The notes beneath the pieces are model-generated. The model saw only the letters and a program-made list of their open reading frames with translations. It made no database searches and was not told the DNA's origin. A DNA stretch of 34,069 bases from Chiloscyllium plagiosum (Eukaryota). Within the stretch, counting starts at the first letter, position 1. Each line of letters opens with the position of its first letter. This document shows, in pieces, positions 943 to 32,975 of this stretch. A program made the position numbers and the translations under genes. The stretch is taken from NCBI RefSeq assembly GCF_004010195.1, contig NC_057755.1:4928316-4962384 (forward strand), read 5' to 3'.

Positions 943-1844
943 TTATTTATTGAAAGCGCAAGAAAGTTTTTCAAACAGGTACTTTACTGCATTACATATC
1001 TCCGCTCTAAATCTAGACAACGTTGCTGCATAAATGAACGTGTTTGTGCAACAACTTAGGTTCTGCAGCATAAAACCAACAATACTGAAGTGGTACAGAA
1101 AAGGTGCGTAATCATCAGGGTGGATTTTTTGGATGGCATAATATAAGAAATCTATGACAACGATTAACCACAGGAGGATGAAGCTTCCAGAAATGGTGAA
1201 GAGCAAAATTACAGACTTCTTTCTGCTCTCCATCTCTGGGTCTCTGTGATTCTCACCTATACTCTCACCCTTCAGCCTCTTCCGGACTCGACTGGTCACT
1301 AAAATATGCCTGACTGTCAGAGCATTGAACAAAAGAATCAAAACAAATGGCAGTAAAGGGGTTAAAACCATATCAAGCCAATCTAATGCCACCCACCAAG
1401 TCTCAGTGAAGTAGCTTGATTTTGTATAACAGTAGAATGGCACATTGTTGATTATCATCATAGGTTCATATTCAAAGTAGAAAGGGATGTTTTTCAGACA
1501 GAGCAGGATGCAGGTTGTTGCTAAGACCACAGTAGCCGTTTTCTCAGTGCAATATTTTGTTCTCAGCTTCTGACAACAAATCGTCACAAATCGGTCAAAC
1601 GAGAAAGTGACCGTGAACCAGACAGAACAGTCTCTTGCTGCACGTATCAGGGCCCCAATAACACTGCAAACAGGAGTGATGGACAGGAAAGACTGAGGAT
1701 AATAATAAAAGCGAAAACTCGTCAGCAGAATATCAGTGATAATGACCATCAGATCGGCAGCTGCCATGACCACCAGATAGCGAGTTGTGCAAGGGGAAAC
1801 ATCACACTTTCCCCGGGAAAAGATGACAATTGCCAGCAAATTAA
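943..1844 (-). CDS. Exon 2 of an intact GPR139/GPR142-like class A GPCR (end of TM1 to C-terminus; spliced product 322 aa)
   Basis: Open 902-nt exon after a polypyrimidine acceptor (TTTGTCTTCCACAG|TTAAT). Hydrophobic helices carry class A motifs: TM1 (V)NLLAIV, TM2 AAADL, TM3 SVWFTVTFSFDRFVTIC, TM6 SGSFILLW, TM7 NTFIY, helix 8 SRFR. The ORF-track start at 1857 is intronic. Confidence 0.93.
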
Positions 1845-2684
1845 CTGTGGAAGACAAATACCAAATGACGTGGTGAATTACTGATCAGAAACCCCCTGCC
1901 TTTTCCAGACAGTTACAATAAGATTTTACCACAAAAATCAGCGCACCCTGTGAGTGGAAGTTGGAGGGATTGAGTGAAATTCATTGAGTGAGGGGCCATG
2001 AGTTCAGTCTTCGTCCAAACTCCACAATCTCTAGACTGAGTGTGCAATTTTAAGAATCTGAGACACACCTGAGTGCCCAATGACTCTAAAGATTGTGGAG
2101 TGTGGACAAAGACTGAACTCACCAGCCCTCCGTAGAAAGCAGAGGGAAGGTTTTGATTATGTTCACTTGTAAAATAACTGCGTGAATATCTGTAATAGAT
2201 TCTTAAAGGTCTCAGCTCCAATTTTGGCCAAAACAGAACCTGATGAAAAAACCCGGTTCCCAAATAAATCATAGCACTGGCGATTAGACTGTCAATAAAC
2301 CATACTCTCCTTTTCCCCTTGGATCAGGTCATCCCCGGTTCGTAGCATTGGACCAAATCCTGATCAGAGCCTTAACAGAAGGGGAAACCAATGATCAGTC
2401 AAGATTGCTCCAAGTGTCTTGTGCAAGTGCAGCATATTAGAGCATACAGAGCTCCTTTAGTGACAACGTAAAAGTGTCAGACTGGAATTCCACACATCTG
2501 CACATGAAAAATGTCTCGAGGAACAGAGATTAGGAGGACATTCTGTCAAGATTTGAATCTCCTGACCAGACGGGCTGAGGAGAAGAGAATTTCCAGAAGG
2601 GAGGGTAATTATATGAGGCTTTACGAATCAAAACAGACTGCATATTCACAATACTCAGACGCTTCAAACCGAAGTTGATCAAAA

Positions 2685-2805
2685 TTAACATTTCAGGTTC
2701 ATTCTGAGGAAGAGTCCCCAGACCTGAAACGTTAACTTTAATTTCTCTTCACAGATGCTGTCAGACCTGCTGAGCTTTTCCAGCAACTTCTGTTTAGTTT
2801 TTCAT
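2685..2805 (+). mobile_element. Penelope-like pseudo-LTR fragment with a minimal hammerhead-like core
   Basis: CTGAGGA-AGAGTC-ccca-GACCT-GAAACGTTAAC at 2704-2736, followed by CAGATGCTGTCAGACCTGCTGAGCTTTTCCAGCA, which is shared with other pLTR-like copies in this window. Confidence 0.55.
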
Positions 2806-3373
2806 GCAGCGTATACTTCAACTCCTTTGTTATAACAAAAAACTAATCTGTCTTTGATTTAAAATTCAGGATCTCCATTGCGGTTTCTGGAACAGAGTTT
2901 CAAACTTTCCCGACCTTTGTGCGTCATAGTGCTGACAAACATCTCTCCTGAACACTCTGGCCCTAATTCTCAGACTGTGCTTCCTCACTCTAGATTCCCC
3001 AAAGTCCTCATCTGAATAACAAAAGCAGAAATTACTCAGCATGCCAGGAACATCGGTGGAGAGAAAGCAGAGTTTAATGTAACATTTCCAGAGACCCTTC
3101 TGCAGAAGTAATTTGCATGATCACTCCTCATACCTTCAAACCGCATGAAACCAGAACAGATGGCAGAACACAGAGATCAGAACATGCAGCAGCAGCAGCA
3201 GTGAAGTTGGGAGTCTCTATCAGCAGAGAATTGTACCAAGAATGCTGCTCAGTGAATTGCTGGTGAATTATCCAGATTCTGAATAATGCTGACCAGCTAG
3301 TGAGTTTGTGACATGACAGCAAAGAGCGTAACAGCAGCAGATTAATACAAGTTCACTTATCATAATGCCATAC

Positions 3374-3440
3374 CAGGGATCCCGATAAATGCAAGGATGG
3401 TGTAAAACACTATTTCCAAAAGTTCAATCGTTAGATTCAT
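3374..3440 (-). CDS. Exon 1 of the same GPCR (MNLTIELLEIVFYTILAFIGIP, phase-1 donor)
   Basis: ATG at 3440, 22 codons + G, donor G|GTATGG. It splices in frame to 1844 (G+TT=Val), giving ..AFIGIPVNLL.., a canonical TM1 GxxxN. 67+902=969 nt = 322 aa + stop. N-L-T glycosylation sequon at residue 2. Confidence 0.88.
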
Positions 3441-3510
3441 TTCTCTGCGAGGTGATTTGTCCCTTCAGGCAGCTGACAAGCTCCGTGTTTAAAATCCTGA
3501 GCTGATACAG

Positions 3511-3646
3511 TCCCAGGGACGCTGCCTTATATTGAGTCGAAGCTCCTTGGGGAGATCGAGGTGAGAGCATTGCTCAGTTTTGATGCTGTTTTTCACATTT
3601 CAGTCAGTGAACAAACTAATTGCAATGATGAGTTTAATCCCAATTA
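3511..3646 (-). promoter_or_regulatory. Candidate proximal promoter of the intact GPCR (TATA-like box, O/E-like and homeodomain-like motifs)
   Basis: TATAAG at 3531-3526 (minus strand), about 90 nt upstream of the ATG. TCCCAGGGA 3511-3519, CTCCTTGGGGAG 3543-3554, TAATTG 3617-3622, TAATCC 3635-3640, CAATTA 3641-3646. These are short motifs only. Confidence 0.4.
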
Positions 3647-3937
3647 TGAAGACGTGATGCTGCTTCGAACATTGTCATGAAATAACTAAAATAGAATCTG
3701 GAATCTGCCAGCAATAACGCTGCCCACTCAAATATCAAGAGCTCCATCCCAAGATTATGAATTATTTCAATCGATTCTGCAGCGAAACAGCTTATTCCAA
3801 GTGTGAATATATGTCTCAGAGCTGTTCTTCTGCACTCTATGGTAGGGGCTGCTCCCTATAAACGAGAACATTTCACTGGTTGATTAAAATATGATTCATT
3901 TCACACACTGAATGTGGTTAACAATCATGCAACATCT

Positions 3938-4085: not shown

Positions 4086-4344
4086 CCACTCCAGTCGAAA
4101 ACCACCTCGTCCACCTTAGTGAATGAATGCATTGCTGCTGAGGTCAACAATTCTTCCTCATCCCCCATTGCTAGGATCTGGAATCACATGAAAAAACAAG
4201 TGAGGTGAATATACTGCCGTATCTGAGAGCACGGGACTGAGTGAACAAGATGGACTTCCAAAATTATAGACATGACTGACTTCACTGTACATCCAAATAC
4301 GTTCCGGACTTCTCTTTCCCTGTCACTCTTTGTTCAGATACAAC

Positions 4345-9141: not shown

Positions 9142-10383
9142 TGATTGAGTTTTTTGAAGAAGTAACAAAAAGGATTGATGAGGGCAGAGCAGTAGATGTG
9201 ATCTATGTGGACTGGAATAAGGCGTTCGACAAGGTTCCCCATGGGAGACTGATTAGCAAGGTTAGATCTCATGGAATACAGGGAGAACTAGCCACTTGCG
9301 TACAGAACTGGCTTAAAGATAGAAGACAGAGGGTGGTGTAGGAGGGTTGTTTTTCAGACTGGAGGCCTGTGACCAGTGGAGTGCAACAAGGATCGGTGCT
9401 GGGTCCTCTACTTTTTGTCATTTACATAAATGATTTGGATGTGAGCATAAGAGGTACAGTTAGTAAGTTTGCGGATGACACCAAAATTGCAGGTGTAGTG
9501 GACAGCGAAGAGGGTTACCTCAGATTACAACAGGATCTGGACCAGATGTGCCAATGGACTGAAAAGTGGCAGATGGAGTTTAATTTAGATAAATGCGAGG
9601 TGCTGCATTTTGGGAAAGCAAATCTTAGCAGGACTTATACACTTAATGGTAAGGTCCTAGGGAGTGTTGCTGAACAGAGACCTTGGAGTGTTGGTTCAAA
9701 TCTCCTAGAAAGTGGAGTCGTAGGTGGATAGGATAGTGAAGAAGGCATTTGGTATGCTTTCCTTTATTGGTCAGAGTATTGAGTACAGCAGTTGGGAGGT
9801 CATGCTGCGGCTGGACAGGATATTAGTTAGGCCACTGTTGGAATATTGCGTGCAATTCTGGTCTCCTTCCTATCAAAAAGATATTGTGATACTTGAAAGG
9901 GTTCAGAAAAGATTGACAAGGATGTTGCCAGCGTTGGAGGATTTGAGCTACAGGGAGAGGCTGAACAGGCTAGGGGTGTTTTCCCTGGAGCGTCGGAGGC
10001 TGAGGGGTGACCTTATAGAGGTTTATAAAATTATGAGGGGCATGGATAGGATAAATAGACAAAGTCTTTTCCCTGGGGTCGGGGAGTGCAGAACTAGAGC
10101 ACATAGGTTTAGGGTGAGAGGGGAAAGATATAAGGAGACCTAAGGGGCAACATTTTCACGCAGAGGGGTGTGCATGTATGGAATGAGCTGCCAGAGGACG
10201 TGGCGGAGGCTGGTACAATTGCAACATTTAAGAGGCATTTGGATGGGTATATGAACACGAAGTGTTTGGAGGGATATGGGCCGGGTGCTGGCAGGTGGGA
10301 CTAGGTTCGGTTGGGGTATCTGGTCGGCATAGATGGGTTGGACTGAAGGGTCTGTTTCCATGCTGTACGTCTCTATGACTCTA
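9142..10383 (+). mobile_element. CR1 LINE 'B' (5'-truncated), inserted antisense into CR1 A
   Basis: RT motifs KAFDKVPH, QGSVLGPLLF, SKFADDTKI, LEYCVQFWSP. CTCTATGA tandem tail. 7-bp TSD TGACAGT at 9135-9141 and 10384-10390; removing B restores the host reading EDCQRIQENLD. Confidence 0.93.
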
Positions 10384-13016
10384 TGACAGTCTTCTGTGAT
10401 TTCTGCTACTCCACCAATCATCCTGTCATCTGCAAACTTGCTGATCATACCAACAGTGCCCTCTTCCAGGTCGTTTATGTATGTTACAAACAACAGTGGC
10501 ACCAGCACTGACCACTGTGGAACACAACCGGTCACCTTTCTCCATTTTGAGCAACTCCCTTCAGCGACTACTCTCTGTCTCCTGTTGCACAACCAGTTCT
10601 TAACCACCTCACTAGAACACCCTGCAGAATATGTGACAGCATGTTCTCCATTTGTTTACCATGGGAAACCTTATCAAACGCCGGACTAAAGTCCATGTCT
10701 ATGACATCTACTGTCCTTCCTCCATCTATCAGCTTGGTCGCTTCCTCAAAGAACTCTATTAAGTTGGTAAGGCGTGGTCTCTTCCGCACAAAATCATGTT
10801 GCCTATCACTGATAAGCCCATACTTTTTCAAATATAAATCGATGTCATCCCTCAGTACCTTCCACAGCAACTTTCCCACCATTGCCATCAGGCTCACTGG
10901 TCCGTAGTTACACGGAATTTCCATACTACCTTTCTTGTACAGGGGACAAAATAATTAACCCTCCAGTCCTCTGGAACCTCACCTGTGTTTAAGGATGCTA
11001 CAAAGATATCTGTCATGGTCCCAATTATTTCCTCTATCGCCTGCCTCGGCAACCTGGCAGAGATCCCATCAGGTCGTGGGGATTTGTCCTCCTTAACATA
11101 TATTCGCTACTTATGTCAACGTGATCCGGAGTAACCAAACTTCTATATCTCTAATTTCAAAATTCATCATGTCCCCCTCCTCAGTGAACACTGATACAAA
11201 AGTAATCATTCAAAGTCTCACCCATTTTCTCAGGTTCGACATATAGCCTTCTTTCCTTATCCTTTAGTGGACCAGTCCTTTCTCTAGTTACCCGCTTGCT
11301 TCTTATATAAGAATAAAAGTCTTTGGGATTCACCTGAATTCTGCTTGCTAAAGTTATTTCATGTCTCGTTTTTGCCTGCACGATTCCTCGTTTAAGACTG
11401 ATCCTATTCTCCCAATATTCCTCCATGGCCTGTTTTGTTCTTAGCTGCTTGGACCTTATGTATGCTTCCCTTTTCTTCTTGACTAGTCGTATTATTTCTC
11501 CTGGAGCGTCGGAGGCTGAGGGGTGACCTTATAGAGGTTTATAAAATTATGAGGGGCATGGATAGGATAAATAGACAAAGTCTTTTCCCTGGGGTCGGGG
11601 AGTGCAGAACTAGAGCACATAGGTTTAGGGTGAGAGGGGAAAGATATAAGGAGACCAAAGGGACAACTTTTTCACGCAGAGGGGTGTGCATGTATGGAAT
11701 GAGCTGCCAGAGGACGTGGTGGAGGCTGGTACAATTGCAACATTTAAGAGGCATTTGGATGGGTATATGAACAGGAAGGGTTTGGAGGGATATGGACCGG
11801 GTACTGGCAGATGGGACTAGGTTCGGTTGGGGTATCTGGTCGGCATGGATGGGTTGGACTGAAGGGTCTGTTTCCATGCTGTACGTCTCTATGACTCTAT
11901 GACAGTCTTCTGTGATTCCTGCTACTCCACCAATCATCCTGTCATCTGCAAACTTGCTGATCATACCAACAGTGCCCTCTTCCAGGTCGTTTATGTATGT
12001 TACAAACAACAGTGGCCCCAGCACTGACCACTGTGGAACACAACCGGTCACCTTTCTCCATTTTGAGCAACTCCCTTCAGTGACTACTCTCTGTCTCCTG
12101 TTGCACAACCAGTTCTTAACCACCTAACTAGAACACCCTGCAGAATATGTGACAGCACGTTCTCCATTTGTTTACCATGGGAAACCTTATCAAACGCCGG
12201 ACGAAAGTCCATGTCTATGACATCTACTGTCCTTCCTCCATCTATAAGCTTGGTCGCTTCCTCAAAGAACTCTATTAAGTTGGTAAGGCGTGGTCTCTCC
12301 CGCACAAAATCATGTTGCCTATCACTGATAAGCCCATTCTTTTCCAAATATAAATCGATGTCATCCCTCAGTACCTTCCACAGCAACTTTCCCACCATTG
12401 CCATCAGGCTCACTGGTCCGTAGTTACACAGAATTTCCATACTACCTTTCTTGTACAGGGGACAAAATAATTAACCCTCCAGTCCTCTGGAACCTCACCT
12501 GTGTTTAAGGATACTACAAAGATATCTGTCATGGTCCCAATTATTTCCTCTATCGCCTGCCTCGGCAACTTGGCAGATATCCCATCAGGTCGTGGGGATT
12601 TGTCTTCCTTAACATATATTCGCTACTTATGTCAACGTGATCCGGAGTAACCAAACTTCTATCTCTAATTTCAAAATTCATCATGTCCCTCTCCTCAGTG
12701 AACACTGATACAAAGTAATCATTCAAAGTCTCACCCATTTTCTCAGGTTCGACATATAGCCTTCTTTCCTTATCCTTTAGTGGACCAGTCCATTCTCTAG
12801 TTACCCGCTTGCTTCTTATATAAGAATAAAAGTCTTTGGGATTCACCTGAATTCTGCTTGCTAAAGTTATTTCATGTCCCGTTTTTGCCTTCACGATTCC
12901 TCGTTTAAGACTGATCCTATTCTCCTAATATTCCTCCATGGCCTGTTTTGTTCTTAGCTGCTTGGACCTTATGTATGCTTCCCTTTTCTTCTTGACTAGT
13001 CGTATTATTTCTCCTG
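9984..13016. repeat. Tandem direct duplication of about 1.5 kb (copy 1 9984-11499, copy 2 11500-13012)
   Basis: Near-identical sequence, with paired ORFs 10140-10607/11539-12123 and 10568-10924/12084-12440. CCTG microhomology at 9984, 11500 and 13013. Confidence 0.93.
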
Positions 13017-14372: not shown

Positions 14373-14603
14373 ATTTAATGAACCGAAACCTGCAATCTAT
14401 TCTAAAAGACGAAAGACTTAACAACAATCTAGGTTTGTTCAATGTATCATTTCAGTTGCATGACCTTGAAAGGTTTTGCTATAAATTCTGTGTCTTATGG
14501 TCCTGCTTGATAGCCACCTAATGAAGGAACAGGGCTCCGAAAGCTAGTGCTCTCAAACAAACCTGTTGGACCATAACCTGTTGTTGTATGAGTTTTAACT
14601 TTG
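14373..14603 (+). mobile_element. Penelope-like pLTR 3' end (right piece) with a mutated hammerhead core
   Basis: CAC-CTAATGA-AGGAACAGGGCTCC-GAAAGCTA-GTG at 14515-14549, then AAACCTGTTGGACCATAACCTG..TTTTAACTTTG, matching 3938-4085. Confidence 0.65.
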
Positions 14604-14779
14604 AAAGGTTGAGACAGAGGCATTCTGAAGAAATTAGGTGGGATTGCGAGGAAAATTTCCTTTCTATCTTATTGTATTGAATACATCTCCTATAAATATA
14701 GCTTTAAATCACGCGTCGAATATGAACTGGCGTAGTCATTTTTCAATTATCAATATTCTATTATACCACATTCATGCAT

Positions 14780-15692
14780 TTCTTTTTACTTCAAAAATAT
14801 ATTTCATCCATTTGAAAGACCTTCATATAGAAATAGTCACAAATGTAGGATGGTTCTGTACAACAGCATGACAAGGGACAAAGAAAGGAGTTTGTCTCGC
14901 TCCAAAAAGCCAAAGACATCTCTTACACATAAAGGCAATACTTAAGTGCATTTGAGGCACTGGAAGGATCCCATAATTGAATGGAGCTTCATCGTGCATT
15001 GGCTGAAAGACCTTTAAATGGTGTTCTTTCGCCACTGCACCATGGAGGCATCTGCCTCAAGCTATCGCGTGGCCCTCACAAAATGAGGCATCTGCCTCAA
15101 GCTATCGCGTGGCCCTCACAAAATAGTTCTGGACCTTGGAATGTGCCCATCTGCAACACTTGGTCAGGATCAACTCCTTGTTCTGGAAGACCAACAAGTT
15201 TTGGACACATCGATGAGCGTCTTTTTATCAACCTCTTGGTCCTCCAGGCGCAGTCGATGTCTGTTGCAGACTTGGCAAAGGCAAATTCCAGAAGGAGATG
15301 TGTGATAGTCTGTAGTCTCCACACTCCCACACCCCCAACAGCTTCGAGGGCAGCGTGTGGTGGTACAGATCCACCGGGCATATATGTGGATTCTGACAGG
15401 CAGTATTCTTCTCGACACTAACCATGGCATGTCTTGGTAATTGTTTGAAAAATGCTGCTGTTGAGGCATTCTACCAAGTGAATCTGACAGCCTGCCCAGG
15501 GAACCGCGCGACAGAACCCACACTCAGATTTTTCCGAAGGGTCTCATGAAAGCTACCTACTCTCCACTTCCTGAGAGACTGTGGTCAAAGGTGTTTCTCT
15601 TTGCATGAGGGGCAGGTGATAAGGAGCGATCCATCTACCTGGAGCATTCGGTGGCGATGAGACCAAGTCCATCTTTCGCAACACTCTGTCCT
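14780..15692 (-). mobile_element. Tx1/L1-clade LINE 3' remnant
   Basis: zf-RVT-like RCPRSCWGCG..TITHLLLEFAFAK and C-terminal NLLVFQNKEL..CCRWAHSKVQNY; A-rich tail toward 14780. Confidence 0.7.
15045..15124. repeat. Perfect 40-bp tandem duplication inside the Tx1-like element
   Basis: GAGGCATCTGCCTCAAGCTATCGCGTGGCCCTCACAAAAT x2. Confidence 0.95.
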
Positions 15693-17093: not shown

Positions 17094-17979
17094 TTAATTT
17101 GCTGGTGACGTTTATCCTTTCCCGGGGAAAATGCGGTGTTTCCCTTTGCACGACTCGCTACCTGGTGGTTATGGTAGTTGCCGATCTGATGGCCATTATC
17201 ACTGACATTATACTAACAGATTTTCACTTTTATTACTGCCCAAATTCTGTCCTGTCCAAACTCCTGTGTGCAGTGTTATTGGGGTTGTGTCACATGCAGC
17301 CACTGTCTGAACTGTCTGCTTCACTCTCACTTTCTCCTTTGACAGATTTGTGAGTATTTGTTATTAGAAGCTGAAAACAAAATATTGCACTGAGAGAACT
17401 GTAACTCTGGTTCTAGCAACAACCTGCACCTTGTTCTGTTTGAAAACCATCCCCTTCAATTTTCAATATGTACGTCAGTTGATAACCAACCATGTGCCAT
17501 TCTACTGTAAAACAAAATCAAGCTACTTTACTGAAACTTGGTGAGTGGTATTAGATTGGCTGGATACAGTTTTGCGCCCTTTACTGCTATTCGCTTTAAT
17601 TCTGTTCTGACAGTTGGACACATTTTAGTGACAAGGCGAGTCTAGCAGAGGCTGAAGGGTGAGAACGAAGAAGAGAATTGCACAGACTGTGAGATGGAGA
17701 GCAGAAGGAAATCTGTGATATTGCTCTTCGCTAAATCTGGGACTTCCATAATCCTGTGGTTACTCTTTCTTGTACAGTTCTTATGTCATTCAAGGAATCC
17801 ATCCTTACGATTACTTGGCTTTTCTGTATTCCTTAGGTATGACTGGTTACATGCTCCAGAATTTAAGTTGTTGCACAAATACATCCATTTATGCAGCAAC
17901 TTTGTCGAGGTTCAGAATGAACATCATTAACACAGTAAAATACCTGGTTACATGAATTTCTTCCATTATGAATAAATAA
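17094..17979 (+). pseudogene. GPR139/142-like GPCR pseudogene, exon 2
   Basis: Acceptor TTTTCTTACATAG|TTAAT at the same phase-1 site as the intact gene; colinear with it from VNLL..SRGKC to NK*. Premature stops at 17308, 17365, 17542, 17643 and 17953. Frameshifts near 17258, 17605 (deletion removing the 'NA' of NAL) and 17788. Exon 1 not found. Confidence 0.93.
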
Positions 17980-18044
17980 AATTTCTAATTGAATCCAGAA
18001 GAATTTTCTAAATGTTTCCAGACTATGGTATGATATTTCCAATT

Positions 18045-18645
18045 CTCCCACGAGAGGTGGGCATCACTGGTTGCGTCAGAACTTATTGCCCCGTCACCAG
18101 TTGCCACCCCATGGAGACAAGAGTGAGCTGCCTTCTTGATACGCTGCAGTCCATGTGCTGTGGCCTGACCCACAATGCCCTGAGGGAGGGAATTCTAGGA
18201 TTTTGAAGAAGCAACACTGAAGGAATAGTGATATATTTCAAGGTCGGGATGGTGAGAGGATTCCAGAGAAATTTACAGAGGTGTGGCGTCCTCGTGCATC
18301 TGCCATTCGCGTTAATTCTGTTGCTCAATGCCCTGACAGTCAGACACATTTTAGTGTTCAGTCGAGCTCAGAAGAGACTGAAAATTGAGACCCGGAGATG
18401 GAGAGCAGAACCCTTTTCATTCCAGATGGAATTGGGCGTGTGTTTGCAAATTGCTTACTGGGGATATTTGGTGAATTTCTGTGCTGCATATTGTAGCTGG
18501 TGCACACTGTTGCTACTGAGTGTCGGTGGGGTGGGAGGTAATGTTTAAGGGTGCGGTGCCAATCAAGAGGGGGCTGCTTTGTCCTGGTTGGTGTTCAGCT
18601 TCTTGAGTGTTGTGGGAGCTGCCTCCATCCAGGGCAAATGGGGAC
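18045..18645 (-). mobile_element. Degenerate LINE 3' end (same family as 424-888), interrupted by a GPCR fragment; second copy at about 21409-22006
   Basis: The reverse complement gives AHGLQRIKKAAH..ATSDAHL and TLKKLNTNQDKAAPL, matching 424-888. Confidence 0.7.
18300..18410 (+). pseudogene. Isolated GPCR TM5-ICL3 coding fragment (second copy 21664-21774)
   Basis: LPFALILLLNALTVRHILVFSRAQKRLK../DPEMESR versus the intact gene LPFVLILLFNALTVRHILVTSRVRKRLK..DPEMESR. Confidence 0.88.
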
Positions 18646-18999
18646 ACTGAAAGTGAAGCCTTATCCCAATGCAGGGAGGGAGTTCAACTGGGAACTTATG
18701 GACTTGCTAGTGCAGCACAATCTAAAGGAATTGTCCAGGGATTGGAATTTTCTACTGGTTAACTCCTCTCAGATTGGAACCCTCTGTAAGTCTCCAAAAA
18801 ATCATATCCTTCAAAGGGATCTGATGAAACTAAATAACAAAGTAATTCAGAAAATATTTGTCGATTAAGTACGTAGTCTTACTCCTGAGTACGAATTCAA
18901 CAGATTGCATATTAATCTCACAATGATCCCACGATGGCCAGTTTCAATGTGAGGAATTGTGGCAGGGGATTACATGACAGTATCAGAACCACACTGGAA

Positions 19000-19075
19000 A
19001 CCTTTATTTATGCAGTGACATTGTCTCGGTTCAGCGTGAAGTTCCATAATGCAGTAAAAAATCTCGCTCGATCGG
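19000..19075 (+). pseudogene. Isolated GPCR TM7-helix 8 coding fragment (second copy about 22363-22438)
   Basis: TFIYAVTLSRFSVKFHNAVKNL versus the intact gene TFIYAATLSRFRAEICNAVKYL. Confidence 0.82.
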
Positions 19076-19399
19076 TTATATCCATGAGAACGAATGGCTG
19101 AGGTCCCTACTTTTAAGCATCATTGTTACAGCTGCCAAAACTGATTTGTGTTTCCAAATAAATTCTTTGAAGAACGGAACAAACATGCAGTGTGAGGAAT
19201 CATACAGCTTGATCGCTTCTCTGAGCAAAATCTGCTTTTGCAGTGGCGTGAAGAGTCCAGTTGAGGATGGTATTGTATCACTGAAAACAAATGGACAGCC
19301 AGACGGAGAGAGAGAGAAAGTCTGAAACTTCGATTAACAACATGTTAATTAATTTATTCAAATCTCCATTGGAAAAAAAGAAATTCCCATTGCAGGTAG

Positions 19400-20200
19400 A
19401 GATGGGCACACACATACACGCGCACACATGCAAATAGGCATATACAAGTACAGAGAGACAGAGACACACAAACGTATAAAGGACACATCATCATCAGCAT
19501 CAAATTACCACCTTAAACACAGTAGTGACACAGATAGAGGGTTTTTAACCTCAGTTCAACGGCTTCACTTCCAAAACAACAGAGACGCTATTGCACAGAC
19601 ATACAGTCACAGAGATATACACGGAAATATAAACGTACTGTCATATTAACACACTGAAGGCACAAACATGTAGATGGTGTCAGAAATCGCATGTTGAAGT
19701 TCAACAGTATTATTTGGAAGCTTGTGATTACAAATAAATTTGTTGGGCTCTGACCTGGTTTAGTGCGACTTCTGATCTTGTCCACCTCAGTCCAACACCG
19801 GCATAGACACAGAGATAGACTGTGATACATATGCACAAGCAAAGAAACACACTGTAATAGACACACTTATATACACTGAAACACGCACATGCACCTCTGT
19901 CATGCACACAAATTCATCAACAGAAACATGCAGATAGATACCGAGGGAGATGCACACATGCGCAGACATAGACACTCACATATACAGAGAGATGTCCAGA
20001 GATGGATGCATAAACAGAGAGAGAAAAACAGGCGGACACAGAGACACCCACACACAAAAGCAACACACAGAGACACACACACATATATGCACTCACAATC
20101 ACATGTACACGCACACAGATACTCAGACATGTACTCACAGACACTCAGAGGCACACATGCGTGTAGAAACACACTGTCATACATGTACAAACACACAGGT
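19400..20200. repeat. CA-rich low-complexity region (duplicated at about 23480-24270)
   Basis: CACA/CAGA-rich degenerate repeats interspersed with unique sequence. Confidence 0.75.
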
Positions 20201-20226
20201 ATTGCCAATGACAGCCAATGTGAAGA

Positions 20227-20886
20227 GTCTAATAGAATGACACTAATGTCGGTGGAGTAGTGGATAGTGCTGAAGGATGTTGCAGGTTACAGAGGAACAT
20301 GGATAAGCTTCAGAGCTGGGCTGAGAGGTAGAAATTGGAGATTAATACGTAAATGTGTGAGATAATTCACTTTCGAAGGAGTAACAAGAGCACATAGTAC
20401 TGGGCTAATAGTTATATTCTTGAAGTGTGAATGAGCAGAGAGATATCGATTCCATGTATATTGATGCCTGAAAGTTGACACACAGATTGACGGGGTTGGT
20501 AAGAAGGCTTACAGTGTGGTAGCTTTTATCGGTACAGGGATTGAGTTTCGGAGCCATGAGGTCATATTGCAGCTGTACAAAACTCTGGTGCGGTCGCACT
20601 TGGAATATTGCGTGCAGTTCTGTTCGCTGCATGATAAGAAGGATATAGAAGCATTAGAAAGTGTGCAGAGGGGATTTACCATGGTGTTTTCGTTAGAGAG
20701 AAGGGGTTTGAGAGGAGCCCTAATAGAGAGATACAAGATAATCAGAGAATTAGAAAGGATGAGCAGTGAGAGCCTTTTTCCCCGAATGTTGATGGCTGGC
20801 ATGAGAACACATGGTTTTAAATTGAGGAGTGATGTTTATAGGAAAGATATCGGAGGTAGGTTATTTACACAGAGATTAGTAAGGAC
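20227..20886 (+). mobile_element. Degenerate CR1 ORF2 3' part, cut at the duplication junction (complete copy about 24307-25145)
   Basis: LQLYKTLVRSHLEYCVQF..LERRGLRGALIERYKI..FTQRLVR. Copy B continues into NALPAVV and a CR1 3' UTR. Confidence 0.88.
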
Positions 20887-21168
20887 CGTATGGAGTCAGC
20901 TATTATGAGGGGGCATAGCTTTAAATTAAGGGGGGGTAGGTATAGGGCAGATGTTAGGGGTAGGTTCTTTACTCAGCGTGTCGTGAGTTCATGGAATGCC
21001 CTGCCAGTAGCAGTGGTGGACTCTCCCTCATTATGGGCATTTAAGCGGGCATTGGATAGGCATATGGAGGATAGTGGGCTAGTGTAGGTTAGGTGGGCTT
21101 GGATCGGAGCAACATCGAGGGCCGAAGGGCCTGTACTGCGCTGTATTCTTCTATGTTCTATGTTCTAT
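20887..21168 (+). mobile_element. 5'-truncated CR1 3' end at the duplication junction
   Basis: Uninterrupted ORF2 C-terminus RGHSFKL..FFTQRVVSSWNALP..FKRALDRHM, 3' stem GGGCCGAAGGGCC and (TTCTATG)n tail. Confidence 0.92.
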
Positions 21169-21353
21169 GAATCCATCCTTATGATTACTCGGCTTTTCTG
21201 TATTCCTTAGGTATGAGTGGTTACATGCTCCAGAATTTAAGTTGTTGCACAAATACATCCATTTATGCAGCAACGTTGTCACGGTTCAGAATGAACATCA
21301 TTAACACAGTAAAATACCTGGTTACATGAATTTCTTCCATTATGAATAAATAA
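21169..21353 (+). pseudogene. Duplicated 3' end (ECL3-TM7-C-terminus) of the GPCR pseudogene
   Basis: IHPYDYSAFLYSLGMSGYMLQNLSCCTNTSIYAATLSRFR..KYLVT*ISSIMNK*; it shares the premature TGA with 17953. Confidence 0.9.
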
Positions 21354-22006
21354 AACTTCTAATTGAATCCAGAAGAATTTTCTGACTATGGAATGATATT
21401 TCCAATTCTCTCACGAGAGGTGGGCATTACTGGTTGCGTCAGAACTTATTGCCCCGTCACCAGTTGCCACCCCATGAGAAGACAAGAGTGAGCTTCCTTC
21501 TTGATACGCTGCAGTCCATGTGCTGTGGCCTGACCCACAATGCCCTGAGGGAGGGAATTCTAGGATTATGAACAAGCAACACTGAAGGAATAGTGATATA
21601 TTTCAAAGTCGGATGGTGAGAGGATTCCAGGGAAACTTACCGTGGTGTGGCGTCCTCGTGCATCTGCCATTCGCGTTAATTCTGTTGCTCAATGCCCTGA
21701 TAGTCAGACACATTTTAGTGTTCAGTCGAGCTCAGAAGAGACTGAAAATTGAGACCCGGAGATGGAGAGCAGAACCCTTTTCATTCCAGATGGAATTGGT
21801 GTGTGTTTGCAAATTGCTTACTGGGGATATTTGGTGAATTTCTATGCTGCATATTGTAGCTGGTGCACACTGTTGCTACTGAGTGTCGGTGCGGTGGGAG
21901 GTGATGTTTAAGGATGCGGTGCCAATCAAGAGGGGGCTGCTTTGTCCTGGTTGGTGTTCAGCTTCTTGAGTGTTGTGGGAGCTGCCTCCATCCAGGGCAA
22001 ATGGGG

Positions 22007-22792
22007 ACGCTGAAAGTGAAGCCTTATCCCAATGCAGGTAGGGAGTTCAGCTGGGAACTTATGGACTTGCCAGTGCAGCACAATCCAAAGGAATTGTCCA
22101 GGGATTGGAATTTTCTACTGGTTAACTCCTCTCAGATTGGAACCCTCTGTAAGTCTCCAAAAAATCATATCCTTCAAAGGGATCTGATGAAACTAAATAA
22201 CACAGTAATTCAGAAAATATTTGTCGATTAAGTACGTGGTCTTACTCCTGAGTACCAATTCAACAGATTGCATATTAATCTCACAATGATCCCACGATGA
22301 CCAGTTTCAATGTGAGGAATTGTGACAGGGGATTACATGACAGTATCAGAACCACACTTGAAACCTTTATTTATGCAGTGACATTGTCTAGGTTCAGCGT
22401 GAAGTTCCATAACGCAGTAAAAAATCTCGCTCGATCGGTTATATCCATGAGAACAAATGGCTGAGGTCACTACTTTTAAGCATCATTGTTACAGCTGCCA
22501 AAGGGGTCACACTCCATGAAGTCTCAAGCAGGAATTTCCTGTCATGTGGCGAAGTGTCAAATGAGAACAATGAATGTCTCTTTTGTTGAAAGTGAGACAA
22601 TGTTACCCTCTGCTGGACATCCCACACCACTGCACATGGATTGTTGGTGGGTAAAAATTGTCTGATTCAGTCAGAAAGACACAGAGAGAGCGAGGCCAGC
22701 ACAATCAACACAGATACACCCACACGCACGAACACAAACATGCAGAAGCTCACACAGAGGCAATCATCTGCACACAAACAGGCACATGTGCA

Positions 22793-22829
<37 letters not shown>

Positions 22830-23222
22830 ACACAAATAAACACACAAAAATACAAGGCTGGAGTGGATTTGGTAACAATTGCGCTGAGGTCTCTCAGTCA
22901 GTAAAAACACTCAGGGCAGCAACGCTTGTGATTCCTCTGCAGTGAGGTATGATTTGTCTTGGAGCACCATTCCTGAAATAATAGACATGAAATAGAGTAT
23001 TTCTGCTATAATTGTATACAAGAACCTTGGAGTGAATCGTCTCTTCAGGAGACTATGGTGAATTTTATTACACTTTCTGCAGGTGTGTTGTGATGCAAAT
23101 CGCAAAATCTAAGTGAGAACTGATACAAAATTGCAGTGGATAAAACGACCTCTGGAAATATTCATCTTCCTCTCCTCATGTCTCAGGGACAATATCGCAA
23201 AGGTCAGGCAAAACTGATTTGT
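22007..23222 (+). pseudogene. Probable heavily degraded LINGO-like LRR-Ig-TM gene relic (partial copy about 18645-19150)
   Basis: Ordered frameshifted segments: WLTPLRL..SFKG/LMKL; NRLHINLTMIP (LRRs); KWLRSLL..AKGVTLHEVS..FLSC (LRRCT-like); NVSFVE/*DNVTLC/AGHPTP/TW (Ig); FGNNCAEVSQSVK (Ig G strand); IIDMK*SISAII..TMVNFITL (juxtamembrane/TM); KV-AKLI (C-terminus). Confidence 0.5.
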
Positions 23223-24306
23223 GTTTCCAAATAAATTCTTTGAAGAACGGAACAAACATGCAATGTGAGAGATTCACACAGCTTGATCGTTTCTCTGAGC
23301 AAAATCTGCTTTTGCAGTGGCGTGGGGAGTCCAGTTGAGGATGGCATTATATCACTGAAAACAGAGGGACAGCCAGATGGAGAGAGAGAGAAAGTCTGAA
23401 ACTTCGATTAACAACATGTTAATTAATTTATTCAAATCTCCATTGGAAAAAAAGAAATTCCCATTGCAGGTAGAGATGGGCACACACATACACGCGCACA
23501 CATGCAAATAGGCATATACAAGTACAGAGAGACAGAGACACACAAACGTATAAAGGACACATCATCATCAGCATCAAATTACCACCTTAAACACAGTAGT
23601 GACACAGATAGAGGGGTTTTAACCTCAGTTCAACGGCTTCACTTCCAAAACAACAGAGACGCGACTGCACAGACATACAGTCACAGAGATACACACGGAA
23701 ATATAAACGTACTAGCATATTAACACACTGAAGGCACAAACATGTAGATGGTGTCAGAAGTCACATGTTGTAGTTCAACAGTTTTATTTGGAAGCTTGTG
23801 ATTTCAAATAAATTTGTTGGACTCTGACCTGGTTTAATGCGACTTCTGATCTTGTCCACCTCAGTCCAACACCGGCACAGACACAGAGATAGAATGTGAT
23901 ACATATACACAAGCAAAGAAATGCACTGTAATAGACACACTTATATACACTGAAACACGCACATGCACCTCTGTCATGCACACAAATTCATCAACAGAAA
24001 CATGCAGATAGATACAGAGGGAGATACACATATGCGCAGACACAGACACTCACATATACAGAGAGATGTCCAGAGATGGATGCATAAACAGAGAGAGAAA
24101 AACAGGCGGACACAGAGACACCCACACACAAAAGCAACACACAGAGACACACACACATATATGCACTCACAATCACATGTACACGCACACAGATACTCAG
24201 ACATGTACTCACAGACACTCAGAGGCACACATGCGTGTAGAAACACACTGTCATACATGTACAAACACACAGGTATTGCCAATGACAGCCAATGTGAAGA
24301 GTCTAA

Positions 24307-25145
24307 TAGAATGACACTAATGTCGGTGGAGTAGTGGATAGTGCTGAAGGATGTTGCAGGTTACAGAGGAACATGGATAAGCTTCAGAGCTGGGCTGAGA
24401 GGTAGAAATTGGAGATTAATACGTAAAAGTGTGAGATAATTCACTTTCGAAAGAGTAACAGGAGCACAGATAACTGGGCTAATAGTTATATTCTTGAAGT
24501 GTGAATGAGCAGAGAGATATCGATTCCATGTATATTGATGCCTGAAAGTTGACACACAGATTGACGGGGTTGGTAAGAAGGCTTACAGTGTGGTAGCTTT
24601 TATCGGTACAGGGATTGAGTTTCGGAGCCATGAGGTCATATTGCAGCTGTACAAAACTCTGGTGCGGTCGCACTTGGAATATTGCGTGCAGTTCTGTTCG
24701 CTGCATGATAAGAAGGATATAGAAGCATTAGAAAGTGTGCAGAGGGGATTTACCATGGTGTTTTCGTTAGAGAGAAGGGGTTTGAGAGGAGCCCTAATAG
24801 AGAGATACAAGATAATCAGAGAATTAGAAAGGATGGACAGTGAGAGCCTTTTTCCTCGAATGGTGACGGCTGGCATGAGAACACATGGTGTTAAATTGAG
24901 GAGTGATGTTTGTAGGAAAGATATCGGAGGTAGGTTATTTACACAGAGATTAGTAAGGACATGTAATGCCCTGCCTGCAGTAGTGGCAGACTTGCCAATT
25001 TTAAGGGCATGTAAATGATCATTAGATAAACATTTGAGTGATAATGGAATAGTGTAGGTTAAGTGGGCTTGAGATTGTTTTCAAAGGTCGGTGCAACATC
25101 AAGGGTAGAAGCGCCTATACTGCATTGTAATGTTCTCAGTTCCAT
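24307..25145 (+). mobile_element. Degenerate CR1 3' portion
   Basis: ORF 24590-25018 (HLEYCVQF..FTQRLVRTCNALP) followed by a decayed CR1 3' UTR and tail. Confidence 0.88.
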
Positions 25146-26760: not shown

Positions 26761-27194
26761 CGAAGGGAATTGCACATTTAATTTATTGGGTATAGACTGA
26801 TGACCAATAAAAGTTTGGCTGTTGCTGGAGTCTAATGCTGAACATAAATAGGCGGTTCCACGCAGTGCAGATGACTGATCAATACTTTCTGTTAACCTTC
26901 GTCGAAGATAATTGTAATTCTATCTACATTTTTTTAATCAAAAACATTTGTAATAACTGCATGAAGAGTTCGTAATGATTTCCAGTGCTCAGCCCCATAT
27001 CGCCTTCTAAATTACCTTGGAAACATTGAGACACAGGCTTCTAAAGAAACTAGACCGGACTGCAAGGACGGTTTTCCTTCATTCTATTGTATTAAGAAGC
27101 TTATTAAATATGGATTTCTATAAAATGATTAAAAATTGAGTTCGGATTGTCATGTCACAATTATTTAAATTCTGTTTTATTGTATTCATTCATT

Positions 27195-28410
27195 TCTTTT
27201 TAATCCAAAAATACATTTTATGAATTAAAAAAAATCTTTATATATGAATAATCACAAAGGCAATACAGTTCTGTCCAATAGCACAACAAGAAAACTAACC
27301 AAACGAACAAAGACACATCTTAGACAAGAAAAAAATTAAATAGACTTGGGACACTGGAAGCTTTCGATAATTGAACAGAGGTTCATAGTGCATTAGTTGA
27401 AACAACTTAAATTGTGATCTTTTCCCACTGCACTTTGGAGGCAACTGCCCTAAGATTGAATGTATCCCGGAGCACATAACCCTGGCCCTTTGAATGGGTC
27501 AGTCTGCAGCACTCGGCCGGTGTCAACCAATTGTTCTGGAAGACCACATGTTTCGGTTAGACCAAACAGTGTCTATCACAGGATAAATTGTCCTCCAAGT
27601 GCAGTCAATGTTTTTCTTTGTGTGCATCCCAGGGAACAGGATCCTGAAGCACAGAGTCCTGTGTCATGGAGCTGCTCGCGAAGAACCACGATACAAACCA
27701 TTGCATTTTCCCCCAGATTTCGTTTGCAAAGATATATTGCAGAAGGAAGTGTGTGACAGCCTGTATCAACATGCAGACATGTCGTTGGCAGTGTGTGCCG
27801 ACAGGGCATATGGAAGGACCTCACAGGGACTTCACTTCTCACCAACAGCCAAGTGGAGCATTGGCACTTGTTGGAATGTTTTGGAGATGAGGCGTTCTTC
27901 CAAATGCCTTTTACAGCCTGCACAGGGAACCATGCAGACGGCCCACCCTCTCCTTTTCCCGCAGCGTCTCGAGAACACTACGAGATTACCACTTCCTGAC
28001 GGACTGTGTCCAAAGGTGCCTTTTCTTTGCAAATTTCTCGATGCAGGACAGATGATACAGAACGGTCTAATTACACGGAGAGTCCAACTGGATCAAGGCC
28101 TGCTCCATCCTTTACAACACCGGAGATAATTAGATCTTCAGTACATAATGCCGCTTGGAGATTGTGTACCAAATGTCCATGCTGACCTTGACTCAGCCAC
28201 ACAAAAAGGTGTCCATAAGGATGAAGGTAGAGCCAGGTTTGGTCTTCCCACCGCCTTATTCAGATTTATGTTCATGAAGTCCTAGCAGACACTGTCTATC
28301 TTCGACATCCAAATGAATTGGAAGATGATTCGGGTAACTGCAACAGTGCAGGTCCATGGAATTTGTCAGAATGGCACCACTTAAAACAACAGAGAGAGTG
28401 CCGAAGCATA
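27195..28410 (-). mobile_element. Tx1/L1-clade LINE 3' remnant
   Basis: Related to 14780-15692 (shared TTGTTCTGGAAGACCA, TTTxCCACTGCAC and GACTGTGxxCAAAGGTG blocks). The reverse strand gives IPWTCTVAVTRIIFQFIW, WKNASSP and TVTHFLLQ; A-rich tail at about 27200. Confidence 0.7.
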
Positions 28411-29105: not shown

Positions 29106-31573
29106 GAGTCATATAGTCATACAGAAGTACAGCATGGAAACAGACCCTTCGGTCCAGTCCGTCCACGCTGACCAGATTTCCCAACCCAATCTAGTCCCAC
29201 CTGCCAGCACCCAACCCATATCCCTCCAAACCCTTCCGATTCACATACCCATCCAAATGCCTCTTAAATATTGCAATTGTACCAGCCTCCACCACATCCT
29301 CTGGCAGCGCATTCCATCATTCCATACACGTACCACCCTCTGCATGAAAAAGGTGCCTCTTCGGTCTCCTTTATATCTTTCCCCTCCCACCCTAAACCTT
29401 TTCCCTCTAGTTCTGGACTCCCCCACCCCAGGTAAAAGACTTTGCCTATTTATCCTATCCATGCCCCTCATAATTGTGTAAAACTCTATAAGGTCACCCC
29501 TCAGCCTCCGACGCTCCAGACAAAACAGACCCAGCTGTTCAGCCTCGCCTTGTAGCTCAGATTCTCCAACCCTGGCAACATCCTTGTAAATCTTTTCTGA
29601 ACCCTTTCAGGTTTCACAACATCATTCCGATAAGAAGGAGACCAAAATTCCAAAAGTGGCCGAACCAATGTCCTGTACAGCTGCAACAAGACCTCTGAAC
29701 TCCTGAACTCAATACTCTGACCAATAAAGGAAAGCATACCAAACACCTTCTTCACTATCCTATGTACCTGCGACTCCACTTTCAAGGAGCTATGAACCAA
29801 CACTCCAAGGTCTCTTTGTTCAACAACACTCCCTAGGACCTTACCATTAAATGTCGAAGTCCTGCTAAAATTTGCTTTCCCAAAATGCAGCACCTCGCAT
29901 TTATCTGAAAAAAACTCCACCTGCCACTTCTCAACCCATTGGCCCAACTGGTCCAGATCCTGTTGTAATCTGAGTTAACTCTCATCGCTGTCCACTGCAC
30001 CTCCAATTTCGGTGTCATCTGCAAACTTACTAATTGTACCTCTTATGTTCGCATCCAAATTATTTATGGAAATGATAAAACGTAGATGGCGCCGCACGGA
30101 TCCTTGTGGCACTCCACTGGTCATAGGCCTCTAGTCTGAAAAAAACAACTGTCCACCACCACCTTTGAGCCAGTCCTGTATCCAAATGGCTAGTTCTCCC
30201 TTTATTCCATGAGATCCAAACTTTCTAACCAGTCTCCCTTGTCGAACGCCTTACTGAAGTACATATAGATCACATCTACTGCTCTGCCCTCATCAATCTT
30301 CTTTATTACTTCTTCAAAAAACTCAATCAAGTTTGTAAGACATGATTTCCCATGCACAAAGCCATATTGACGATCCTGAATCAGTCCTTGCCTTTCCAAA
30401 TGCATGTACATCCTATCCCTCAGGATTCCCTCCAACAACTTGCCCACCACCGAGGTCAGGCTCACCGGTCTATAGTTCGCTGGCTTTTCTTTACCGCCTT
30501 TCTTAAACAGTACCACCACGTTTGCCAACTGGCACCTCACCTTGGACTATCGATGATTCAAATATCTCAGCAAGAGGCCCAGAAATCACTTCTCTTGCTT
30601 CCCTCGGAGTTCTCGGGTACACCTGATCAGGTCCCGGGGTTTTATCTACCTTTGACCGTTTCAAGACATCCAGCACTTCCTCGTCTGTAATCTGAACATT
30701 TTTTAAGATGTCACCATCTATTTCCCTGCAGCCTATATCTTCCATATCCTTTTCCACAGTAAATACTGATGCAAAATATTCATTTAGCATCTCCCTCATT
30801 TTCTGTGGCTCCACACAAAGGCCGCCTTGCTGATCTTTGAGGAGCAAGTTTTGCACCTTCTCGAGTACGTACATCCACTGAATCCTGAGGGGCCGAATGG
30901 CCTACTGCTGCTCCTAGCTCTGATATTATTGTGTATCACAAACCTTCACAAACGTTCTGCCTTGCTGATCTTTGAGGAGCCCTATTCTCTCCCTAGTTAC
31001 CCTTTTATCCTTAATATAATTGTAAAAGCCCTTTGGATTGTCCTTAATTCTATTTACCAAAGCTATCACATGTCTCTGTTTTGCCCTCCTGATTTCCCTC
31101 TTAAATATACTCCTACTTTCTTTATACTCTTCTAAGGATTCACTCGATCTATCCTGTCTATACCTGACATATGCTTCCTTCTTTTTCTTAACCAAACCCT
31201 CAATTTATTTAGTCATCCAGCATTCCCTATACCTATCAGCCTTCCCTTTCACCCTGACAGGAATATACTTTCTCTGGATTCTTCCTATCAAATTTCTGAA
31301 GGCTTCCCATTTTCCAGCCGTCCCTTTACCTGTGAACATCTGCCTCCAATCAGCTCTCAAAAGTTCTTGTGTAATACCATCAAAATTGGCCTTTCTCCAA
31401 TTTCGAACTTCAACTTTCAGATCTGGTTTATCCTTTTCCATCGCTATTTTAAAACAAAGAGAATTATAGTCGCTGCCCCCAAAGTGCTCCACCACTGACA
31501 CCTCAGTCACTTGCCCTGCCTTATTTCCCAAGAGTCAGTCAAGTTTTGCACCTTCTCGAGTACGTACATCCAC
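29106..31573 (-). mobile_element. CR1 LINE 'C' (same family as B), 5'-truncated in the endonuclease
   Basis: 3' end is the reverse complement of B's (GAAGGGTCTGTTTCCATGCTGTAC plus GACT[C/A]TAT tail). ORF2 pieces REGAKLD, SDYN, PGPDQVYPR, NYRPVSLTS, FSKAFDK, KFADDTEI. Confidence 0.93.
30846..30958 (+). other. Templated insertion copied from 31541-31648, flanked by a 22-bp direct repeat
   Basis: 30845-30953 equals 31540-31648 except one C/T difference. GCCTTGCTGATCTTTGAGGAGC occurs at 30824-30845 and 30959-30980. Confidence 0.92.
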
Positions 31574-31699
31574 TGAATCTTGAGGGGCCGAATGGCCTAC
31601 TGCTGCTCCTAGCTCTGATATTATTGTGTATCACAAACCTTCACAAACCTTGCAAAAATTATTGTGTTCTCTTCCGGAGTCAATCGAGTCTTGGAAGAT

Positions 31700-31893
31700 C
31701 GAGAGTGAGGTGTTCGAAAAAGGCAGCAGCTCAGGCAGAATCCGAGCAGCATGAGAATCAACGTTCCAGGCAAGAGCTCTTCATTAGGAATATACCCGAA
31801 ACGGCGCCTCTCCATCTCCTCGGATGCTGCCTGATCCTTTCCAGCAACACACCATCAACTCTAATCTCCAGAATCTGTAGTCCTCACTTTTTC
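31700..31893. mobile_element. Degenerate inverted Penelope-like pLTR hairpin (family of 4472-4649)
   Basis: CAGGCAGAATCCGAG arm versus CTCGGATGCTGCCTG arm; ends CTCCAGAATCTGTAGTCCTCACTTTT, the reverse complement of the start of the 4472 element. Confidence 0.65.
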
Positions 31894-32780
31894 CTGGAGT
31901 CTTGGAAGGTGACCATCAATGCATCCATTACTCTTTGGGCTACGTTTTTAAATAATCTGGGAGGCCAGTAATAGGGCTTCAGGGATTTATCTGCCTTAAA
32001 TCTCATCAGTTTGACCAGCACCATTTTCTCAATCACCCTGATGTCATTCTCACTCGCCCTGATGTACTTCACTCACTCTTTAGAGCAGAGAATGTCGAAG
32101 AAAGCCTGGGTGTTGTCTTCTCATATTATGAGAAGCATGGTAAGGTGGATTGAAAGCATCTGTTCCTTCACTGAAGGATAGTAACAAGCAGGGATGAATT
32201 TAAAGTGAAGGGCAGGAGGTTTAAAGGAGATTTGAGGGAATATTTTCTCTCAAATCTTAGTGGGGGTCTTAGTGCACTGTGTATGAGGTTAGTGGAGACA
32301 TAAACCCTCACAAGCTTTACAGGCATTTGGGTAAGCACTCGAAATGTTATGTCATTCAAGGCTATGGACCAAATGCTGGAATGTGGGACTTGTGTAGGTA
32401 GAGGGTAATTTGTTTTCTGGGTCGAGCTCGATGCACTGGAGGGCCGCTATCTTTTTTCTCTCATTGGAATTTGTCCCCCAATATTATCTGAGCTTTATTT
32501 GTGTCCTCCTTTGTGAAGACCCATGTTAAGTATGCATTTAATTTTCTTCCCCATTATTTGCATTTGAATATGTAAGGGACGACCATTTGACTTCATTAAT
32601 TCTTTTTTCTTTACACGCCAAAGAAATATTTAATACACAGTTGTTTTTGTTCTCTGCAAGCTTGACTCTCTCCCACTTAATCAATCCCTTGCTTCTCCCT
32701 TGCTAAAACCTAAACTGCTTCTTAAGTCTGCTTTTTTTTTAATTTTTAAGCAATACGTATGCTTGTTGCTTGAATCTGAA
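31894..32780. mobile_element. Mixed old CR1 fragments (both strands)
   Basis: Minus strand KADKSLKP..PRLFKNVA..TFQDS (31894-32030); plus strand HEFKVKGRRFKGDLR-like 3' end (about 32190-32450). The remainder is only tentatively CR1. Confidence 0.55.
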
Positions 32781-32826
32781 GCAAACACATGTTACACATG
32801 TCACATTCCTACAGACCACGCGCTGG

Positions 32827-32833
32827 TATAAAT
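32827..32833 (+). promoter_or_regulatory. TATA box upstream of the third GPCR exon 1
   Basis: TATAAAT begins 82 nt before the ATG at 32909, a spacing similar to the TATA-like motif of the intact gene. Confidence 0.5.
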
Positions 32834-32908
32834 CCCAGGCCGCATTAATTTTTTACCTCAATTTTAATAGATTCGGTTGTGACACCACAGACCAGTTCAC
32901 GTAGAAAA

Positions 32909-32975
32909 ATGCTTGACGTATTCCAAAGTATTTCTAAAATAGTGTACGCAACCATTGCCATCGTTGATGTTCCTG
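32909..32975 (+). CDS. Exon 1 of a further GPR139/142-like paralogue (MLDVFQSISKIVYATIAIVDVP; exon 2 outside the window)
   Basis: Exactly 67 nt (22 codons + G), like exon 1 at 3374-3440. Aligned IVYATIAIVDVP versus IVFYTILAFIGIP; consensus donor CCTG|GTAAGT. Whether the gene is functional cannot be judged here. Confidence 0.8.

Follow-up and report, generated by a model that had tools for sequence, protein, structure and literature searches.

The genome of the shark Chiloscyllium plagiosum holds a birth-and-death G protein-coupled receptor (GPCR) repertoire that is real and large, a familiar type of repertoire in a new lineage. We analyzed a 34,069-nt stretch of this 3.56-Gb genome (NC_057755.1, positions 4,928,316 to 4,962,384; G000:C46:4928316-4962384), the whole of which is called the window here. 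As an earlier note made from the sequence alone had claimed, the window contains an intact gene, a broken exon 2 and a third 67-nt exon 1; all three were located, and the spliced frame of the intact two-exon gene encodes a class A (rhodopsin) GPCR of 322 aa. Such two-exon genes are multiplied by DNA-level duplication in clusters, with the intron kept, and frequently decay. We regard the chances as about even that the family is a chemosensory repertoire whose paralogues detect different external ligands. In window coordinates, the intact gene is composed as follows.

3374-3440, minus strand: exon 1, 67 nt (22 codons plus 1 base), with a phase-1 GT donor.
1845-3373, minus strand: the only coding-region intron, 1,529 nt, in transmembrane helix 1 (TM1), with splicing predicted from the DNA.
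943-1844, minus strand: exon 2, with a CAG acceptor, from the second half of TM1 to helix 8.

Exon 1 was aligned with 30 related exon-1 loci, and the stop codon of exon 2 is overlapped by AATAAA.

Exact degenerate matches to the TM3 motif of the family were found at 1,601 loci genome-wide, with none in the reversed control, and two TM7 motifs gave 1,107 and 401 matches (2 in each control). A protein search of the genome yielded 134 matches from the best 131 of 8,360 candidates, the full-length ones being at least 58% identical. Copy number is thus far above one to three, and family loci occur on many contigs. In the 234 kb around the window, we counted about 19 exon-2 loci, six of them open over at least 300 codons. 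The TM3 motif detected only 6 of these 19 and was lacking in 9 of the 30 loci closest to the window gene. Among 53 loci sampled from the motif loci listed on one contig, C8, exon 2 was open in 17 and broken in 21, while 14 lay at assembly gaps and one was unassessed. The lineage-expanded birth-and-death repertoire suspected in the earlier note was therefore confirmed. Scaling 1,601 by 0.32-0.45 gives 510-720 open copies, and adding motif-less open copies gives perhaps 700-1,000. In this genome, exon 2 would be open in roughly 500-1,000 copies, a figure extrapolated from one contig and including haplotigs. This estimate is based on exon 2, exon 1 having been checked at a minority of loci, and 7 of the 30 closest loci were counted as open despite a stop near helix 8. 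Paralogues about 90% identical indicate recent, rapid turnover. Because introns were kept, an origin by retrocopying was ruled out.

The only Pfam match of the window protein was PF00001 (E 6.6e-21; cut-off E<=0.01). Since its nearest relatives are orphan clades, membership of the OR, TAAR, V1R, T2R or V2R families was rejected. A structure model of the exon-2 product built from a 100-row alignment, which superseded a poor model from 30 close rows (predicted local distance difference test, pLDDT, 56.7), reached a pLDDT of 93.3 and displayed a beta-hairpin in extracellular loop 2 (ECL2). Its top Foldseek match was GPR139 (7vug), on a par with several peptide receptors, those for neurotensin and opioids among them; comparison with peptide GPCRs gave Z scores of 24.5-25.9 and root-mean-square deviations of ~3-4 Å across ~250-280 residues. 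With position numbering and region borders set from motif anchors, N1.50, D2.50, DR3.50, C3.25-C45.50, P5.50, W6.48 and N7.49/Y7.53 were all present and nearly invariant, and P6.50 and P7.50 were replaced (window gene positions 250 and 291). P7.50 is replaced throughout the whole group. P6.50 is gone in most family members and retained in the early-branching P0172 and P0208 and in the amphibian sister clade described below.

The ligand-facing half behaves differently. Pocket positions 3.29, 3.32, 7.35 and 7.39 had entropies of 2.7-3.5 bits in 79 sequences. We fitted our own codon models (F3x4, nucleotide tree, naive empirical Bayes posteriors) to 29 of the 30 closest loci, representing the window's subfamily, and to 15 of the 17 open C8 loci; two loci in which no exon start was found and one of another subfamily were dropped. 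Model M2a was favored over M1a in both sets, with twice the log-likelihood difference at 68 in the window's subfamily (29 sequences; omega 3.1 on 4.8% of sites) and 320 in the C8 subfamily (15 sequences; omega 10.8 on 5.9% of sites), and 56-64% of sites had an omega of ~0.14. All sites with a posterior >0.9, 7 of 7 and 15 of 15, respectively, lay in the extracellular half (Fisher p 0.003 and 2e-6). In the window's subfamily, 3.32 and 6.51 were among them; those of the C8 subfamily included sites in ECL1, ECL2 and outer TM6-7. For the inner half, the pairwise ratio of nonsynonymous to synonymous rates (dN/dS) was 0.27 and 0.37, while ECL2 of the C8 subfamily reached 1.72. The intracellular half is under purifying selection, whereas positive, diversifying selection acts on the extracellular face. 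Alignment entropy and site analysis together bore out the earlier observation that ECL1/TM3, ECL2 and TM6-7 are the most variable segments. The C8 subfamily, in which selection on ECL2 was strongest, has members 80-93% identical at the nucleotide level that are spread over ~0.3-70 Mb of the 107-Mb contig at spacings of a few hundred kb, with no tight cluster.

The earlier note had called these receptors GPR139/142-like, and not GPR139 orthologues. The family does belong to the same wider receptor group as GPR139 and GPR142 (PDB 7vug), with the class A fold, W6.48 and a phase-1 TM1 acceptor in common. However, these two are separate genes in this genome, each found once: a GPR139-motif gene at C21:58.73 Mb and, 56% identical to it, a partner at C24:44.3 Mb that we read as GPR142. 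A forced clade of the family with GPR139/142 was rejected (approximately unbiased test, p-AU 1.05e-5; 26 rows, LG+G4). Lancelet sequences branched between GPR139/142 and the family (98/93), and the branching of a 55-row quick tree agreed with that of the 26-row tree. Identity was only 24%. Activation of GPR139 needs F3x33, H5x43, W6x48 and N7x38, according to the accessible part of PMC5430874. The equivalents in the window gene are R90, D180, W248 and F280, so that only W6.48 is retained, and the residues matching the other three vary across the family. With the joint clade rejected, the true genes located elsewhere and three of four Trp/Phe residues changed, one-to-one orthology with GPR139 or GPR142 failed. 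Some family loci lie at C21 59.2-60.2 Mb, 0.5-1.5 Mb from the true GPR139. We set this linkage aside as a sign of origin because the tree separates GPR139 from the family and the loci lie on many contigs.

The nearest kin are instead orphan receptors of other vertebrates. We searched 1.84 billion representatives with a profile and obtained 131 hits at E<=1e-30; the nearest of these outside the family were orphans with short N-termini from salamander, coelacanth, teleosts and lancelet. One clade of orphans, found in amphibians and a sturgeon and named "probable GPR139" (e.g. XP_069092602.1 of Pleurodeles), was recovered as the sister of the family (100/100 in the 26-row tree; Shimodaira-Hasegawa-like approximate likelihood ratio test, SH-aLRT, 99 in the quick tree). 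It has the same short N-terminus and the same motifs in intracellular loops 2 and 3 (ICL2 and ICL3). It was found once per species in 20 amphibian clusters, which are 66-74% identical to each other, and in the sturgeon, and its pocket is invariant at 3.32, 3.33, 3.36 and 7.39 in three aligned sequences. Unlike this apparently single-copy receptor with its fixed pocket and P6.50, the shark family comprises >1,600 loci, has a variable pocket and has mostly lost P6.50. No separate one-to-one match of the amphibian/sturgeon orphan was found in this genome at E<=1e-42 among the best 119 of 5,575 candidates.

Two other orphan clades do have one-to-one matches here, on C26 (64%) and C98156 (48%). These genes, G000:C26:36600769-36601743 (L072) and G000:C98156:21293-22192 (L080), are apparently single-copy orphan GPCRs, carry the TM1 intron acceptor of the family and match coelacanth and teleost "probable GPR139" genes. 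The quick tree places a further divergent orphan with a long branch, G000:C27:2294602-2295507 (L081), beside the C98156 gene. Rinne et al. (2019; PMC6504862) described three sets of bony-vertebrate orphans beside GPR139/142, two of them named GPR210A/B, in a paper whose main text makes no mention of sharks. It is plausible that these three sets are the three orphan clades found here, which we matched without Ensembl identifiers. The amphibian/sturgeon sister would then probably be one of them, and L072 and L080 are candidates for shark GPR210A/B.

These relatives also limit two features that had been taken as family characters. A phase-1 AG acceptor lies just before N1.50 in GPR139, GPR142, the two single-copy orphans and five of five family loci, and the canonical acceptor was absent from this site in the degenerate C27 orphan L081. 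The TM1 intron claimed in the earlier note is thus present but marks the wider receptor group; for shark GPR139, only the acceptor side is shown, because no exon 1 was found within ~50 kb. The N-termini are short, as claimed, but equally so in the single-copy amphibian and coelacanth relatives.

The family extends well beyond this species. We obtained 2,192 clusters at E<=1e-10 from a database search, and the 120 clusters listed were all from sharks and named "probable/putative GPR139" or "capa receptor-like". The 23 family representatives that we looked up came from sharks, skates, a stingray and Callorhinchus milii, with two lacking a species, and deep subfamilies have members in sharks, skates, a ray and a chimaera. 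The genes are already in RefSeq, hidden under one automatic name. In three RefSeq models (P0211, P0194 and P0170), exons of the family are joined with genes that have no relation to it (integrin alpha-X-like, sodium channel-like and RING-type), and these fusions are probably annotation artefacts. We found no published description of the expansion in the full-text literature, a coverage that excludes subscription papers and bioRxiv supplements. For the terms searched, the family is unmentioned in the available portions of PMC10620051, PMC11979771, PMC8455134, PMC7677710, PMC10116579 and PMC12294341, and GPR139 did not turn up in the whale-shark supplementary files, of which 12 of 24 were covered.

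The remainder of the window records decay and local duplication. Its other receptor-derived features and the region upstream of the intact gene are as follows.

17094-17979, plus strand: pseudogene exon 2, 77% identical to the intact gene at the nucleotide level.
18300-18410, plus strand: fragment of a decayed paralogue, TM5-ICL3, identified by sequence match.
19000-19065, plus strand: TM7-helix 8 fragment, identified by sequence match.
21163-22502, plus strand: local 96% duplicate of 17789-19139, identified by self-BLAST.
32909-32975, plus strand: third exon 1, 67 nt, ending in G|GTAAG.
3441-3740, minus strand: proximal upstream region, conserved within the window gene's subfamily, with a TATA-like box at 3526-3531.

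The pseudogene exon 2 has an AG acceptor in the phase of the intact gene, three frameshifting deletions (1, 10 and 5 nt) and five in-frame stops. A search for its exon 1 found none, and a 500-N gap lies upstream. The two fragments that follow it probably derive from one decayed paralogue. The duplicate at 21163-22502 holds copies of the 3' end of the pseudogene and of both fragments (21171-21350, 21664-21774 and 22363-22428). Accordingly, the fragments at 18.3, 19.0, 21.2, 21.7 and 22.4 kb represent a single decayed set together with the local duplication at 96%; paralogue fragments are present, as the earlier note had it, but not all are separate. The 67-nt length that the earlier note gave for exon 1 is not universal in the wider cluster: the 234-kb region has 8 candidates for this exon, and 2 of them measure 70 nt. 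The nearest same-strand exon 2 to the third exon 1 is frameshifted and lies 3.2 kb downstream, beyond the window (G000:C46:4964497-4965388), and is likely its partner. The rest of the window consists mostly of remnants of long interspersed nuclear elements (LINEs), simple repeats and the 500-N gap. A 1.5-kb tandem duplication (97.8%) lies within interleaved LINE remnants at 9980-13016, and 19136-20886 is duplicated at 23209-24960 (97%). Two non-receptor segments, 14595-15605 and 27012-28031, are 68-74% similar and are probably one degenerate repeat element.

If the family is chemosensory, conserved G-protein coupling combined with a diversified pocket would allow each paralogue to respond to an external ligand of its own and to signal through a shared G protein, with expression in sensory cells of the nose, skin, gut or taste organs. 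A different ligand per paralogue is suggested because a single endogenous ligand needs no such diversity and because the pocket of the single-copy sister is fixed. The ligands would likely be peptides or amino-acid derivatives, given the ECL2 beta-hairpin and the ancestry in the GPR139/MIP/FMRFamide receptor group, whose members recognize aromatic amino acids and aromatic-ended peptides (PMC8557429, in the part accessible). Like the OR, TAAR, V1R/ORA, T2R and FPR/MRGPR families, the shark family combines large clusters, birth-and-death evolution and pseudogenes with a conserved inner half and a variable pocket. It differs from OR, TAAR, V1R/ORA and T2R in its GPCR ancestry and in its coding-region intron. 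Nematode srw receptors, described in the available text of PMC3963977 as chemoreceptors derived from peptide-type rhodopsin receptors, provide a precedent from a protostome lineage, by analogy only. PF10324 was assigned to 16-42% of members in some Atlas look-alike clusters, whereas the window protein hits only PF00001. The known olfactory repertoire of sharks is tiny, according to the available part of PMC11979771, which we count in favor of a chemosensory role. More specifically, this might be a fifth family of olfactory receptors in vertebrates, with several hundred to 1,000 GPR210-like members that would show sparse expression among the olfactory neurons of sharks, rays and chimaeras; we hold this only tentatively, as less likely than chemosensation in general.

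Several observations weigh against this interpretation. The short N-terminus, which the earlier note had taken as a pointer to chemosensation, provides no evidence for it because it is ancestral. In the window's subfamily, dN/dS was below 1 in every region, with a maximum of 0.61. The outer segments also have elevated dS (in the C8 subfamily, 0.20-0.24 in the ECL1, ECL2 and ECL3 regions compared with 0.13 inside), so the selection tests may be inflated by gene conversion. Single-cell reads from ~2% of one run, tissue unspecified, were aligned to window 700-3700 at 85%; none was spliced, exon 2 received only a few divergent reads, and a repeat inside the intron accounted for most of the alignments. 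A second single-cell run gave no exon 2 reads, and we take these reads to favor neither side. The upstream region (3441-3740) contains motifs that we take to be homeodomain-like and O/E-like (olfactory type), present in most of 30 close copies. This evidence is weak, and we judged it non-discriminating because these copies are not independent and an O/E-like site was found in only one of four promoters from other subfamilies. In catshark, the olfactory epithelium is apparently all microvillous (Go/TRPC2), which fits V2R dominance, and no need for a further olfactory family is reported in the part of PMC10116579 available. Furthermore, an immune arms race would account just as well for the very high omega on the outer loops.

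Immune pattern-sensing is accordingly a possible alternative, though we consider it unlikely, and slightly less probable than the olfactory proposal. Leukocytes or barrier cells would use the receptors to detect microbial or parasite peptides, as in FPR or MRGPR expansions. The peptide-receptor-like fold, the rapid turnover and, in the C8 subfamily, an omega of 10.8 focused on ECL1, ECL2 and ECL3/outer TM6-7 would all suit this role. However, a Pfam search of the 73 other open reading frames of at least 130 aa in the 234-kb cluster gave six hits, all to retroelement-type domains and none to an immune gene domain, although short exons would escape it. Class A GPCR repertoires that run into the hundreds are known mainly for chemosensation. 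By analogy with sex-peptide/MIP receptors, the family might also recognize fast-evolving conspecific peptides in reproduction, gamete interaction or individual recognition. Its ancestry among aromatic-peptide receptors (PMC8557429, as far as accessible) and its positively selected outer loops are consistent with this, but no matching ligand family is known and no endocrine need yet known calls for receptors by the hundred, so we give it little probability.

An equally small probability falls to a duplication-prone expansion by drift, in which segmental duplication produced many redundant copies with few distinct functions. The broken state of 21 of 38 gap-free sampled loci, the local duplications that carry the gene together with decayed fragments, the raised dS of the outer segments and the possibility that some unplaced contigs are redundant haplotypes all speak for it. 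It is nevertheless already disfavored by the strong constraint on 56-64% of sites, the confinement of selected sites to the extracellular half, the deep subfamilies spanning sharks, skates, a ray and a chimaera, and the retained introns, which exclude retrocopies. Finally, a repertoire of GPR139/GPR142 paralogues sensing Trp/Phe is very improbable. The common intron position, the top Foldseek match to GPR139 (tied with peptide receptors), the retained W6.48 and the database names favor it, but the single GPR139 and GPR142 genes at other loci, the rejected clade, the low identity and the changed residues do not, and as orthology this reading is refuted.

Cartilaginous fishes have been described as poor in GPCRs (the part of PMC8455134 available) and in olfactory receptors (PMC10116579 and PMC11979771, likewise in part), a published poverty that contrasts with their large noses. 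Our estimate of 500-1,000 open copies is more than ten times the 32 canonical V2Rs of catshark. A large repertoire, its ligand face under selection, has arisen from a lineage that is still single-copy in amphibians. In a sensory and in an immune role alike, it would represent an independent origin of a large vertebrate receptor repertoire. If a fifth olfactory family proves true, the idea that a few dozen V2Rs account for smell in cartilaginous fishes would fall.

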